Assembly (NCBI GenBank): GCA_964503045.1
Contig: CAZCZI010000011.1
Coordinates: forward strand, 62,895-126,894
Length of the DNA stretch: 64,000 bases
DNA from: an uncultured Candidatus Obscuribacterales bacterium
GTDB taxonomy: Bacteria > Cyanobacteriota > Vampirovibrionia > Obscuribacterales > Obscuribacteraceae
Reading direction: 5' to 3'
A program made the translations under genes and the position numbers. Of the stretch, positions 32,171-37,997 are shown piece by piece. The notes under the pieces were generated by a model, which was not told the DNA's origin, ran no database searches, and saw only the letters and a program-made list of their open reading frames with translations. Position 1 is the stretch's first letter. Each line of letters starts with the position of its first letter.

Positions 32171-33625
32171 CTAGCTGCGCCTATTTGGAATCGAAAAACT
32201 AAATTTCGAGCCTTTGCCCAATGTGCTCTCCACCCAGATTTCACCGCCGTGTGCCTCGACTATCGTCTTACAAATGAAAAGTCCGAGACCTGAGCCTTTT
32301 TGGTTTTTGCTGTCTCGAATTTGATCTACTTGTTCGAATCTACTAAAGATGGCGTTTTGCATGTTATCGGGAATACCCTCGCCTTGGTCCTCCACAGAAA
32401 AGACAGTGTTATCTGCGTTTTGATTTACCGAAAGCGTAATTTGACTGTCAGGTGGTGAAAACTTCAATGCATTGCTTAACAAGTTTATGAGCACCTGCAC
32501 AAGACGATTGGGATCGGCTATAAACTCGACTTCGTTTTCCAAGGGTACAGTGACAATGGCGGCCTGCTGACCGCCACCTGTTTTAAGGCAATTTACAGCG
32601 TCATCGAGCAATTGATTCGGCGTGATGTCGATTTCTGAAAGAGATAAAGTGCCACGCTCGATATGATCGAAATCGATAAGTTCGTTGAGCATTGCAACCA
32701 ATCTTTTCAAAGTATTCGAAGCCGCCGAAAGCGATGCTTCGCCTTTTGAATTTGGTTCGCCGAAGGCTTGGGTCTGCGCCAGTGTGATGAATACTTCTAG
32801 CTCCAAAAGCGGTTTTCGCAAAGACGTACTCATGATTTCCAAGTATTGCTCGCGTTCCAAACGGGCTGCCCGAACACCCTCTACGATTTCGTGAAACGAA
32901 CGATCGAAAGAGGCTACTTCATCGGTTCCTTTAAGTGGCGGCAGAAGCGGTCGATTGTCTGCAAGGCGCTGTATGTTGTTTTCCATTCGGGTTATTTGCA
33001 TTACAACGTTTCTGCGAACCATGAGCCCGAGAAGAGTGGCGGCCACTATGTTTATTGCAACAGTAAAAATAATGGCGCAATAGATCATAGGACGCGCCTC
33101 ACTCGGTTTAGCCAGCGCATACTTCGCAGGTGGAGATAGCGCCTGCTGCTGCAGCCAATCCATTTGACTAATGGCGTCGGCTTTGAATGCATTGAATTGG
33201 CTCAGTACAACCGGGTCGCTGATCTTTCTTCTTTGCTTTTCCATTCCATCCATCAGAGTCGAAATGAATTGCATCATTCGATCTGAAAGACTGCTTGTGC
33301 ATTTTGCAAGGTCTTCAAAGGGCGGTCCAATGCTTCTGAGTGTGACAATTTCACTGTTCCACTCCTCGACCTGCCCGAGCGCTGATCCATACTGAAAGCC
33401 CGATCCTTCGTCTTTATCGAAAACATCGATCATCACTTTGCCGAAATCGTTCATCGCCGAGGCTACCATCAATACTTGTTTTACTGCTCTTAACGCAGTG
33501 AGTTGATAGTCGAGTGTGGTGGAAATGCTTCTGTACATGTTCGCGAAGACGATGATGATGAATAACTGCAATGCAAGCGGAATGCAGACAAGAATCAAGC
33601 CTTTGGTAAACAATCCAAGCCGCAT
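32171..33625 (-). CDS. Histidine-kinase paralog A1: intact ATP-binding (CA) domain, phospho-acceptor His replaced by Thr
   Basis: TM-sensor (~150 aa)-TM-HAMP-like (LKGTDEVASFDRSFHEIV). The DHp H-box reads YLEIMSTSLRKPL, with an ACG Thr codon at 32825-32827 where His is expected. N box LINLLSNALKFS, G1 EDQGEGIP, F box IFSRFEQ, G2 GSGLGLFICK. Confidence 0.85.
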   Translation of the reverse strand: MRLGLFTKGLILVCIPLALQLFIIIVFANMYRSISTTLDYQLTALRAVKQVLMVASAMNDFGKVMIDVFDKDEGSGFQYGSALGQVEEWNSEIVTLRSIGPPFEDLAKCTSSLSDRMMQFISTLMDGMEKQRRKISDPVVLSQFNAFKADAISQMDWLQQQALSPPAKYALAKPSEARPMIYCAIIFTVAINIVAATLLGLMVRRNVVMQITRMENNIQRLADNRPLLPPLKGTDEVASFDRSFHEIVEGVRAARLEREQYLEIMSTSLRKPLLELEVFITLAQTQAFGEPNSKGEASLSAASNTLKRLVAMLNELIDFDHIERGTLSLSEIDITPNQLLDDAVNCLKTGGGQQAAIVTVPLENEVEFIADPNRLVQVLINLLSNALKFSPPDSQITLSVNQNADNTVFSVEDQGEGIPDNMQNAIFSRFEQVDQIRDSKNQKGSGLGLFICKTIVEAHGGEIWVESTLGKGSKFSFSIPNRRS

Positions 33626-33627
33626 GA

Positions 33628-36563: not shown

Positions 36564-37997
36564 CTAATTGTTCTCCGCGATTTTGGGTAGGATTATTTGA
36601 AAGCGAATTGACTTGGGTGTTGACGAAAATTTGACTTCGCCCGAGTGCAATCCGATGAGCTGTTTGGCCAATGCCAGACCATGACGATGTTCTGCAATCA
36701 GAGGTTCGGCTTGATCAGTGCTTGCAAATCTGTTGAATGGATCTTTCTTGTTGATTCCTCTTTCAATCGGTCCGAATGCTTCGACGTTAATAGTGACTTC
36801 GAGTGGTTCCTCAGTGTGTGCTGTAACCAAAACCTCTTGAGTGCTCGCATACAAGCAAAGAGCAATGATACGATTCAATGCTGCTTCAAACTGATCTGGA
36901 TCACAACATATCGTGCACTGCCCACACGGGTTGACTGAGAGGCGGTCGGTCAAGAACTGTTCCGAAACCGACTCCTGAAGCTGCTTCAGGATTTGATTCA
37001 ATTCTGTATTGGACTTGGCGCTTTGAAGGAGATTCGCTTCAATCTTTTCGAGATCGAGCAAATCGGAAATGATCGTGACGAGACGATCCATGTTTTTTGC
37101 GTGCATGCGAAACAGCCTTCTTCCCTCTACCGAGAATTCGCCGTAGACGCCTTTGCCGAATAGATCGAGCGACATCTGAAGCGATGTAAGCGGCGATCTG
37201 AGATCGTGGCTGACTAATGCGAGAAACTCCTGTTTGCGTTTTCTTGCTGATTCCAATTCGCTAGATAAGGCAATAAGCTTCACTTCAAGCTGTGCTATTT
37301 CGTCTCCTCCGACCAGCTGAGGTTGCACCGAACGATTGCAAGAGAGTGCCAAAGCGCTTTTTTGAAGCGAATTCATTCGGCTTGCGATGTGTCTAGCAAA
37401 GAGATAAAGAAGCACTGTGCACATAAGCAAGTTGAAAGTGAAACCGGTTGCGACAATATATGCGCTAGCCAGCGCCTTGTTTTGCGTGTTTTTGAGTGTG
37501 ATAGCCGACCGAGCAAGCAGAATGTCTGCGACTTGTTTGAATAACTGCCGGGTCCGCGCATAGTAGCCATAGAGGCGTTTTCTCTCGACACCAGTCAACG
37601 CTAGTTTGTCTCCACCACGCGCAATAAAGGTGTTTTGGGTATCTATATAGGCTTCATGTGCCTTCTGGCTTTCAACAATGAGTGGTGCAACTTCTTTGTC
37701 GTCACGATAAAGCTTGGCGAATGTCTGTAGCTTTTCGGCGGACTGCTTTTGCAGAGAGCGCAAGGTTTGTTCTGATTCACTGCCATGCGCTCCAAAGGTC
37801 CAATAAAATATCGTTTCAAGCTGAGCAAGGTAGATGTTACCGAGCTGTCCGTCTGTTCCAAACCCCCTAACGATTGCCGCATGTTTTTTTATCACCGAGA
37901 CAATATCAAGACAAAGTGCTCCTAATGTCGAGGAGATGATTATCCCGGCAATTGCCGGCAGTAAAGTTATGGCCAAAGCCCGTTGCGTCAGAGTCAT
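36564..37997 (-). CDS. Histidine-kinase paralog B2: phospho-acceptor His present, ATP-binding boxes degenerate
   Basis: H-box EFLALVSHDLRSPLTSL, with a CAC His codon at 37206-37208. The CA region reads RIIALCLYAS / VEAFGPIERG / EHRHGLALAKQL. I chose the ATG at 37997 (MTLTQRALAITLLP) by homology with the B1 N-terminus. The longest ORF extends to 38048. Confidence 0.8.
   Translation of the reverse strand: MTLTQRALAITLLPAIAGIIISSTLGALCLDIVSVIKKHAAIVRGFGTDGQLGNIYLAQLETIFYWTFGAHGSESEQTLRSLQKQSAEKLQTFAKLYRDDKEVAPLIVESQKAHEAYIDTQNTFIARGGDKLALTGVERKRLYGYYARTRQLFKQVADILLARSAITLKNTQNKALASAYIVATGFTFNLLMCTVLLYLFARHIASRMNSLQKSALALSCNRSVQPQLVGGDEIAQLEVKLIALSSELESARKRKQEFLALVSHDLRSPLTSLQMSLDLFGKGVYGEFSVEGRRLFRMHAKNMDRLVTIISDLLDLEKIEANLLQSAKSNTELNQILKQLQESVSEQFLTDRLSVNPCGQCTICCDPDQFEAALNRIIALCLYASTQEVLVTAHTEEPLEVTINVEAFGPIERGINKKDPFNRFASTDQAEPLIAEHRHGLALAKQLIGLHSGEVKFSSTPKSIRFQIILPKIAENN

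Follow-up and report, generated by a model that had tools for sequence, protein, structure and literature searches.

Described divided histidine kinases and the array in question

Histidine kinases are textbook homodimers, and cis versus trans autophosphorylation and the asymmetry of the two subunits are still studied with engineered mutant heterodimers. Here, an array of four adjacent genes is described in a stretch of 64,000 nucleotides from an uncultured Candidatus Obscuribacterales bacterium (contig CAZCZI010000011.1, forward strand, positions 62,895 to 126,894). This whole stretch is referred to as the window, and all positions are counted from its first letter. The array encodes two types of full-length transmembrane (TM) sensor kinase paralogue. 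The B proteins retain the phospho-acceptor His of the dimerisation and histidine phosphotransfer (DHp) domain but have lost the ATP-binding boxes of the catalytic and ATP-binding (CA) domain; the A proteins show the reciprocal pattern. As judged from the sequences, A and B are very probably halves that function together as a single kinase, because the pairing is conserved, and sometimes fused, across the Obscuribacterales.

The same pair of lesions has been produced in the laboratory. In the experiments of Yang and Inouye in 1991, EnvZ subunits lacking the His and EnvZ subunits lacking the ATP site reportedly restored activity by trans-phosphorylation in a mixed dimer. These lesions are exactly those of A and B; however, the mixed dimer was an engineered construct of a homodimeric kinase, whereas the A/B pair is natural, fixed and ancient. 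The splitting of EnvZ into its domains is cited in PMC3591291. Split kinases are already accepted as a concept, and the case that has been characterised is that of Rhodobacter sphaeroides, in which the His and ATP functions are on separate polypeptides, CheA3 and CheA4; neither is able to autophosphorylate by itself, and CheA3 receives its phosphoryl group in trans from CheA4 (PMC3591291). In contrast to A and B, these are cytoplasmic proteins of the CheA class (P1-P5) in which the missing domains are physically absent, and they have no sensor domains of their own, sitting in a chemoreceptor array instead of forming a transmembrane sensor. Among the HisKA proteins in SMART, 3.7% were without HATPase_c (PMC3591291).

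In Mycobacterium tuberculosis, a three-gene system includes two kinase genes, HK1 (Rv0600c) and HK2 (Rv0601c), together with TcrA (PMC3544749). As in the present array, adjacent genes divide the ATP-binding and His functions. Shrivastava et al., in work of 2006-2009, are said to have assigned the ATP-binding domain to HK1 and the His domain to HK2, and to have found that the phosphoryl group passes from HK1 to HK2 and on to the regulator. The two proteins differ from A and B in being truncated kinase fragments with an adjacent regulator and without paired extracytoplasmic sensors.

The closest functional counterpart of A/B is the FasB/FasC pair of the FasBCAX system in group A Streptococcus. 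FasB and FasC heterodimerise, and the kinase domain of FasB was proposed to phosphorylate H246 of FasC (Mol Microbiol, October 2025; PMC12675982). FasC's kinase domain is dispensable (a "pseudokinase"), and hetero- but not homo-association was seen in the two-hybrid analysis (PMC12675982). The two systems share adjacent genes (FasBC are co-transcribed) for two membrane kinase-like proteins, one of which has a dead or dispensable kinase domain, and in both models the kinase domain of one partner acts on the DHp His of the other. They differ in that FasBC are of the six-TM type, whereas A and B have two TM helices and their nearest relatives are CHASE3/HisKA kinases; this distinction was made by TM number and relatives, not by direct sequence comparison. 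Moreover, the regulator FasA is in the FasBC operon, whereas no receiver gene is beside any A/B locus. FasB retains candidate histidines, a clean reciprocal loss is not established for it, and no deep conservation or fusion series has been described.

Kinase-fold proteins without autokinase chemistry can also act through another kinase, as in the pseudokinase or inhibitory heterodimer cases of DivL, which has Tyr for His, and RetS-GacS (PMC4211667, PMC8498467). The partner in those cases is fully competent, whereas neither A nor B is competent alone as judged from the motifs, and their lesions are complementary. The heterodimers listed in a 2025 review are of the RetS/GacS type only. In the survey of Williams and Whitworth (2010), which covered 15,704 non-hybrid kinases, only 2 carried two transmitters, and no reciprocal loss of motifs was reported (PMC3018481); the fused Obscuribacterales relatives described below likewise hold two transmitters per chain.

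Phrase searches of the literature on heterodimeric histidine or sensor kinases gave no match, and the papers listed for two-component systems or histidine kinases of Melainabacteria or Obscuribacter did not deal with kinase pairs in their titles or abstracts. A preliminary description of this locus, made from the nucleotide sequence, had stated that no system with such a layout was known to its author. That statement has to be narrowed. The principle of a split or heteromeric kinase is already known from FasB/FasC, CheA3/CheA4 and M. tuberculosis HK1/HK2-TcrA; what was not found described in the literature is full-length transmembrane pairs with clean, deeply conserved reciprocal motif loss, a series of fused single-chain forms, or two-component signalling of this type in Melainabacteria. 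The interest of the present locus lies, more than in the principle, in this natural, ancient, full-length reciprocal pair and in the evolutionary series to which it belongs.

Motif and domain states of the A and B proteins

The array consists of four successive open reading frames (ORFs) of 477-488 residues, all on the minus strand, in the order B1-A1-B2-A2. The pairs are numbered here in the order of transcription, so that B1/A1 is upstream and B2/A2 is downstream; the numbering in the preliminary description was reversed, and its "B1 H265" is H265 of B2 here. B1 (36564..37997, 477 residues from ATG, assigned from Pfam and AlphaFold2) and A1 (35121..36563, 480 residues from GTG, assigned from the ORF list, the junction sequence, Pfam and AlphaFold2) form the first pair. 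B2 (33628..35094, 488 residues) and A2 (32171..33625, 484 residues), both assigned from the ORF list, Pfam and alignment, form the second. The junction sequences give intergenic gaps of 0, 26 and 2 nucleotides along the array. The ATG start of B1 was confirmed by the N-termini of the orthologues; a TTG start at 38048 is less likely, because the orthologues begin with MTLIQRAW. The GTG of A1 directly abuts the TAG stop codon of B1, with both genes in the same frame (36561-36569). It should be mentioned that a single base change at this junction, or read-through of the TAG, would give a fused B-A protein like the fusions found elsewhere in which the His-only module precedes the ATP-only module.

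Each protein contains two hydrophobic segments, at approximately residues 10-30 and 180-203. In the AlphaFold2 models of the B1 and A1 monomers (mean predicted local distance difference test scores of 88.2 and 88.7), a TM helix, a helical sensor, a second TM helix, a HAMP-like helix-connector-helix, a DHp hairpin and an α/β CA-like domain follow one another. The overall architecture of a canonical class I (HisKA-type) kinase is thus present in both types. The DHp hairpins of the A and B models are equal in length, and the B1 model has no ATP-lid helices. B1 has an intact DHp and a degenerate CA domain.

The sensor region was not recognised as CHASE3 (PF05227) by Pfam in A or B, even at E ≤ 1. 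In profile-profile comparison, on the other hand, the TM-sensor-TM regions of A and B matched those of canonical relatives, headed by the CHASE3 paralogue of the window, with probabilities of 99.2% and 99.3%, respectively, and matched each other with a probability of 90%. The A and B sensors are approximately 11% identical to one another and approximately 20% conserved among orthologues. The homology of the sensor modules indicates that A and B, which are 13-19% identical, are ancient paralogues derived from one CHASE3 kinase.

The distribution of the catalytic domains is reciprocal. B1 and B2 passed the Pfam cut-off for HisKA of 26.9 bits (51.1 and 45 bits), and their HATPase_c scores (18.2 and 16 bits) were below the cut-off of 26.4 bits. 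A1 and A2 passed for HATPase_c (105.6 and 107 bits), and their HisKA scores (16.5 and 13 bits) were below the cut-off. A paralogue outside the array (50669..52120, minus strand) passed for both domains, also matched CHASE3, and carries all the motifs. No NCBIfam model attained its cut-off on A, B or a fused relative.

The individual residues were placed by alignment with this canonical paralogue and with solved kinases from the PDB. In B1, the H box VSHDLRSPL (37188..37214) contains His264, the predicted phospho-acceptor; in B2, the corresponding residue is His265 (34282-34308). Both are aligned to the acceptor His of CpxA. The ATP-binding boxes N, G1 and G2 of B1 (36666..36875) and B2 (33745-33966) are degenerate. 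The N box of B1 is NRIIALCLYAS, with Leu in the position of the Asn; in the B proteins of the window, this position is taken by either Leu or Phe. The G1 box of B1, VEAFGPIE, has Ala for Asp and Ile for the second Gly. In the G2 box, EHRHGLALA, the glycines are replaced; the F box, PFNRF, survives.

In A1, the position of the acceptor His is occupied by Ser262 in the pseudo-H box VSSSLRKPL (35760..35786), and in A2 by Thr267 in MSTSLRKPL (32807-32833). These residues are aligned to His260 of HK853 and to the acceptor His of WalK; the best PDB match to A1 was a deposited HK853 chain with Ala at the acceptor position. The ATP-binding boxes of A1 (35229..35444) are intact, with INLLANAIKFS for N, VEDQGQGI for G1, VFSRF for F and GSGLGLFI for G2, as are those of A2 (32273-32488). 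The consensus of the A proteins in the window is NLLxNAxKF, DQGxGI, FSRF and GSGLGL for the four boxes, and N375, N379, G409, G438, G440 and G442 (A1 numbering) are invariant through the A family. Neither A nor B has both the acceptor His and the ATP boxes of a canonical class I kinase. All of the coordinates in these two paragraphs refer to the minus strand.

These results agree with the preliminary description in every detail of what it observed. It had reported four packed minus-strand genes with the gaps given above, as the ORF list and junction sequences bear out, and for each protein the full order of TM, sensor of about 150 residues, TM, HAMP-like segment, DHp and CA, which fits the hydrophobic segments and the AlphaFold2 models. 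Its description of B-type proteins that keep VSHDLRSPL yet lack the N-box Asn, G1 and G2, and of A-type proteins with intact N, G1, F and G2 boxes but Thr or Ser for His, was reproduced by Pfam, by the multiple alignment and by the PDB alignments. It had also proposed such a comparison with Pfam and solved kinases as a check; the motif lesions were confirmed, and no overlooked His or ATP boxes were found. The gene at 50669-52120, named there as a fully canonical relative, was recognised as such by Pfam.

Conservation of the B-then-A pair and its two-module relatives

Homologue searches gave a few A-like proteins without HisKA annotation and a few B-like proteins without HATPase_c, and the genomic context was inspected for every distant A- or B-like homologue (loci L001-L004, from TARA ocean and other sources, L005-L008, L009, L010, L011, L013, L017 and L018). 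In each relative looked up, a HisKA-only gene is directly followed by a HATPase_c-only gene, with a junction between a 14-nucleotide overlap and a 2-nucleotide gap. The B-then-A order and the reciprocal lesions were seen in each of the eight pairs, at identities down to approximately 20%; these pairs come from 7 genomes or metagenomic lineages, which are all that could be retrieved. Named source organisms are Candidatus Obscuribacterales or Melainabacteria. The acceptor His and the ATP site are therefore on separate polypeptides from neighbouring genes in all seven lineages. The preliminary description had suggested that such adjacent His-less and ATP-box-less pairs be sought in other genomes and had taken the losses to be specific; the recurrence of one pattern in all eight pairs means that they are indeed specific and reciprocal, and not due to chance.

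The flanking genes vary across the lineages, and those of the window are common only to L013. At none of the examined loci was a receiver gene for a response regulator found adjacent to the pair. The matches listed from a scan of genome contigs are canonical kinases for the most part. Among those listed, L017 and L018 alone are true B-A pairs, and L031, L056, L063 and L072, from other Obscuribacterales or Melainabacteria genomes, are additional unfused pairs with full or partial reciprocity. In these four (L031:270-3855, L056:647-4311, L063:5-3705 and L072:255-3947), neighbouring kinase genes of different subfamilies are found in either gene order, one being His-less and ATP-intact and its neighbour His-bearing with fully or partly degenerate ATP boxes.

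In the joint alignment, all eight B proteins keep SHD(L/F)R(S/T)P, with an invariant H-box His, and are without N, G1 and G2. All eight A proteins keep N and G2, and seven of them keep the full G1. The acceptor position of the eight A proteins is occupied by S, T, S, S, S, E, R and D, never by His. This variability bears on the possibility that A is a self-sufficient kinase with another acceptor, and that B is an unrelated neighbour. The Ser of A1 and the Thr of A2 sit exactly in the acceptor slot, and both A proteins of the window also contain a His in the HAMP helix, in the motif FDRSFH(E/D)IV. Yet the slot residue varies in the A family and in the fused analogues alike, which means that no substitute acceptor is present at that site, and Ser or Thr at the old His position was rejected as an acceptor. 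The HAMP-helix His, which the preliminary description had itself named as a possible true acceptor, was ruled out because it is Arg in two lineages (the A proteins of L001 and L005) and is also found in canonical kinases. A single His is invariant in the A family, the structural one in the AHGG sequence within the CA domain, and the strict co-inheritance with B speaks against independence. A self-sufficient A is very improbable.

The two proteins have diverged together. Pairwise identities across genomes, which range from 18 to 71% for B and from 24 to 79% for A, are correlated with r = 0.98 over the eight pairs. Among A orthologues, the mean identity is 45% in the pseudo-DHp, 49% in the CA domain and 20% in the sensor; among B orthologues, it is 28% in the pseudo-CA, 53% in the DHp and 19% in the sensor. 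For the closest pair, the pseudo-DHp has a proportion of nonsynonymous differences (pN) of 0.09 and the pseudo-CA one of 0.25; relative to the proportion of synonymous differences (pS), these give ratios of 0.13 and 0.33, respectively. The pN/pS ratio is given instead of the ratio of substitution rates, dN/dS, because the synonymous sites are saturated (pS of 0.72-0.94) even in this pair. Across all domains, the degenerate ones among them, nonsynonymous change is 3-10 fold lower than synonymous change, which is saturated. By this comparison of coding sequences, the inactivated pseudo-DHp of A and pseudo-CA of B are under purifying selection. In this respect the pair departs from the split kinases, in which a domain is physically missing: both partners retain the inactivated domain in full-length, folded and constrained form.

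It might be supposed that the four genes are decaying duplicates of a canonical kinase with no joint function. An IS1595-like transposase remnant adjoins the array, and each gene has lost one catalytic feature, as would be expected in that case. This explanation is extremely improbable, since the ORFs are intact in seven lineages at identities down to approximately 20%, the excess of synonymous change extends to all domains, and the lesions are always reciprocal.

The B1/A1 and B2/A2 pairs are 47-52% identical. In the syntenic locus L013, the gene order is citrate synthase, B, A, an IS1595-like gene, RDD and SpoIIM, with a single pair that is orthologous to B2/A2 (71% identity for B2 and 79% for A2). 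The B1/A1 pair is therefore either lineage-specific or was lost in L013. The tandem duplication mentioned in the preliminary description holds for the window, where two pairs are present, but the doubling appears specific to this lineage. The two-gene pair is the unit, and its tandem doubling is an embellishment; with two diverged copies of the module, the window would encode two composite sensors.

Reciprocal loss was also observed within single chains. The profile of the B family was used in a HMMER scan of 1.84 billion representative proteins, and a word-seeded search was made with the fused protein P0300. The transmitter modules were classified by the states of H, N, G1 and G2, and the H-box alignment was inspected by eye. 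The fused proteins, of approximately 1000 or 1250 residues, contain two complete sensor-kinase modules in one chain, with four TM helices, CHASE3 and/or PAS, two HisKA and two HATPase_c regions, and a linker of 45-50 residues between the modules. Counted as representatives of clusters at 50-90% identity, 59 fused proteins have a His-less, ATP-intact first module and a His-bearing, ATP-degenerate second module, 6 have the opposite order, and 32 have both modules intact. A handful are one-sided intermediates (such as P0303, P0318, P0324, P0496 and P0509). In none of the approximately 100 two-module relatives is the His missing from both modules, or the ATP site from both. For two fused proteins, an uninterrupted ORF was confirmed on the contig (P0300 at L015:5001-8069 and P0295 at L016:5001-7949); other examples are P0270, P0277, P0298 and P0417-P0426. 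Every fused protein with a source name is from Candidatus Obscuribacterales. The former His position in these analogues is occupied by S, R, D, Q, K, G, Y, N, V, F, T, A or E. A separate case is P0286 (2017 residues), in which four complete, motif-intact kinase modules are present in one polypeptide; modules 1 and 3 are alike, as are modules 2 and 4, so that it is apparently a duplicated two-module protein.

The A family and the B family each cluster separately, and the fused modules are nearer to canonical relatives. The fused proteins were for this reason rejected as orthologues of A and B and are regarded as parallel cases; this means that reciprocal loss arose more than once. It is seen in three settings: the unfused B-then-A family, fusions with the A-like module first and fusions with the B-like module first. 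By the Rosetta-stone logic, the fusions suggest that His-only and ATP-only modules act on each other, and the complete lack of doubly defective combinations suggests that selection preserves one working His and one ATP site per assembly.

These regularities bear on the proposal that B serves only as a phosphatase or phosphotransfer protein on the regulator of another kinase, with A as an allosteric pseudokinase in the manner of DivL-CckA or RetS-GacS. Such regulatory pseudokinases of the histidine kinase fold exist, and DivL itself was among the PDB matches. In addition, B keeps a phosphatase-type H-D-x-x-S/T motif, and two canonical kinases are encoded in the window. What would be left unexplained is why the catalytic ATP-site residues of A are invariant over lineages that are approximately 25% identical, why each of the approximately 100 two-module relatives has kept a minimum of one His and one ATP site, and why the pair is inherited as a unit without a nearby canonical kinase or regulator. 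A protein of the DivL/RetS type modulates a fully competent partner; here, the co-inherited B is dead at its ATP site and A has kept its catalytic residues. We give this proposal a low probability.

Possible mechanism, neighbourhood and origin

We consider it fairly likely that one hetero-oligomeric transmembrane sensor kinase is built from A and B as its two subunits and that, within it, B is phosphorylated in trans by A. According to this model, a CHASE3-type histidine kinase was duplicated and the copies underwent reciprocal loss of function. A and B would be translated from one tightly coupled message and inserted side by side in the membrane, where they most likely pair through their DHp hairpins to give a four-helix bundle that is heterodimeric. 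A, with its intact CA domain, would then bind ATP and phosphorylate His264 or His265 of B in trans. The phosphoryl group would be passed from B to a response regulator encoded elsewhere, unlinked to the pair, and B is probably also the phosphatase of that regulator. The pseudo-CA of B and the pseudo-DHp of A may be kept as structural and regulatory parts. The mutual dependence of the two halves, as proposed in the preliminary description, is supported by every computational test made, including those of conserved adjacency, co-divergence, selection and reciprocal fusions.

The association of A and B could also be of another form, in which each of them homodimerises and the homodimers co-assemble, so that the CA domains of A phosphorylate the DHp bundle of B between dimers. 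This would resemble the action of CheA4 on CheA3, or of the isolated CA domain of EnvZ on the isolated DHp domain, and the precedents for split kinases do operate between separate polypeptides. The complete, conserved DHp hairpins and the helical sensors in both A and B could support homodimers, and the four-TM fusions with their linker of 45-50 residues fit equally well a fused dimer that homodimerises module by module. Phosphorylation between bundles is, however, sterically less favourable than trans-phosphorylation within one bundle, and FasB/FasC showed hetero-, not homo-association in the two-hybrid analysis. Helix 2 of the A DHp (LNELIDF) is strongly conserved without an acceptor His, and the simplest explanation is that A and B form a common bundle. 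For these reasons a complex of homodimers seems unlikely, and the heterodimer of A and B through their DHp hairpins is preferred.

Several points weigh against the model of trans-phosphorylation within an A/B pair. The contact between A and B, its quaternary form (a DHp heterodimer or a complex of homodimers), the trans-phosphorylation and the way in which the phosphoryl group moves, the regulator that receives it and what the sensors detect are all points that we infer. Eight pairs are too few for an analysis of inter-protein covariation, and the cognate response regulator is not assignable. The handedness of the DHp loop, which determines the trans geometry, is not readable from the sequence; if the ancestral kinase acted in cis, a simple DHp heterodimer would not suffice. 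In the A protein of L009, the G1 box is weakened (NQGKL), with Asn for Asp and Leu for the second Gly. The fused proteins back the principle by analogy and not the A/B pair directly, their counts are phylogenetically non-independent, and the profile derived from B could have introduced an ascertainment bias.

As for the signals that would be received, the A/B assembly is a possible two-input AND gate, as the preliminary description had proposed; just as well, both sensors might together make up a single heterodimeric, asymmetric one.

A candidate acceptor of the phosphoryl group from B is an OmpR-family response regulator at 48312..48986 (minus strand; Pfam Response_reg and Trans_reg_C). In the Pfam scan of the window ORFs of at least 150 residues, no other receiver domain was found, and this agrees with the earlier statement that no regulator adjoins the array and that the nearest one is at 48312-48986. 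Between this regulator and the canonical CHASE3 kinase (50669-52120), both on the minus strand, lies a gene for a TPR protein in the opposite orientation (49129-50472), and the arrangement between 48312 and 52120 is an unusual split of a presumptive cognate pair. The second canonical kinase of the window (22896-24851, 651 residues) has the order HAMP-PAS-HisKA-HATPase_c and adjoins a sigma-70 family gene (21958-22725) and a gene for an ATPase of the type II secretion system/type IV pilus class (20883-21953).

Directly upstream of the array, a citrate synthase gene (38089-39207) on the same strand ends approximately 90 nucleotides before the ATG of B1. The order citrate synthase-B-A is kept in L013, and co-transcription is therefore possible. 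Promoter- and terminator-like sites across 31600-39400 were not above the count in shuffled sequence, so that these scans are uninformative on operon structure. Directly downstream of the array is the IS1595-family transposase-like gene (30789-31712), with a zinc ribbon and a weak DDE tail. It is in the same place in L013 and is therefore not a recent insertion. Between it and A2, two tandem copies of a unit of approximately 121 nucleotides with internal inverted repeats occupy 31876-32098; their cores (31876-31916 and 31997-32037) are 41 nucleotides long and 98% identical. No further occurrence of a 25-nucleotide repeat core was found in the window, and it had no Rfam match; the Rfam scan of the window gave one tRNA only. 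Just beyond the array on the other side are a gene for an Eco57I-like N6-adenine methyltransferase/restriction fusion (39342-41663) and a gene for an RHS-repeat protein (43587-45716), and this region looks like a variable neighbourhood rich in defence or toxin genes.

All stages of such a divergence would be represented today: proteins in which both modules are intact, those with a lesion on one side, those with reciprocal lesions, pairs of unfused genes in an operon, and four-TM "pseudo-dimers" made of one chain. This is a graded series within one bacterial order, from intact through one-sided to reciprocal, in both unfused and fused form. We put forward, tentatively and with somewhat less than even confidence, that in the Obscuribacterales a homodimeric CHASE3-type kinase has become an obligate asymmetric one on three or more occasions. 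This would have come about by duplication and a subsequent ratchet-like reciprocal loss, with the His kept in one copy and the ATP site in the other. If this is true, the heterodimer would join two different sensors to a single catalytic centre, allowing coincidence sensing of two ligands or asymmetric ligand sensing, a mode that is not known to be documented for bacterial transmembrane kinases.

The locus represents a natural, selectively maintained counterpart of the "His-minus plus ATP-minus" complementation in full-length transmembrane sensors. Should the proposed mechanism be confirmed, the locus would offer a clean system whose phosphoryl transfer can only take place between subunits, a likely example of how constructive neutral evolution or subfunctionalisation yields an obligate hetero-oligomer, and a template for two-input synthetic sensors. 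It would also call for a correction in annotation pipelines, which label both halves "HAMP domain-containing histidine kinase", and "orphan" kinases without one Pfam domain are worth examining alongside their neighbours. For the Obscuribacterales, the evolutionary series opens trans-phosphorylation, the asymmetry of subunits and the ratchet-like emergence of obligate heteromers to direct testing.

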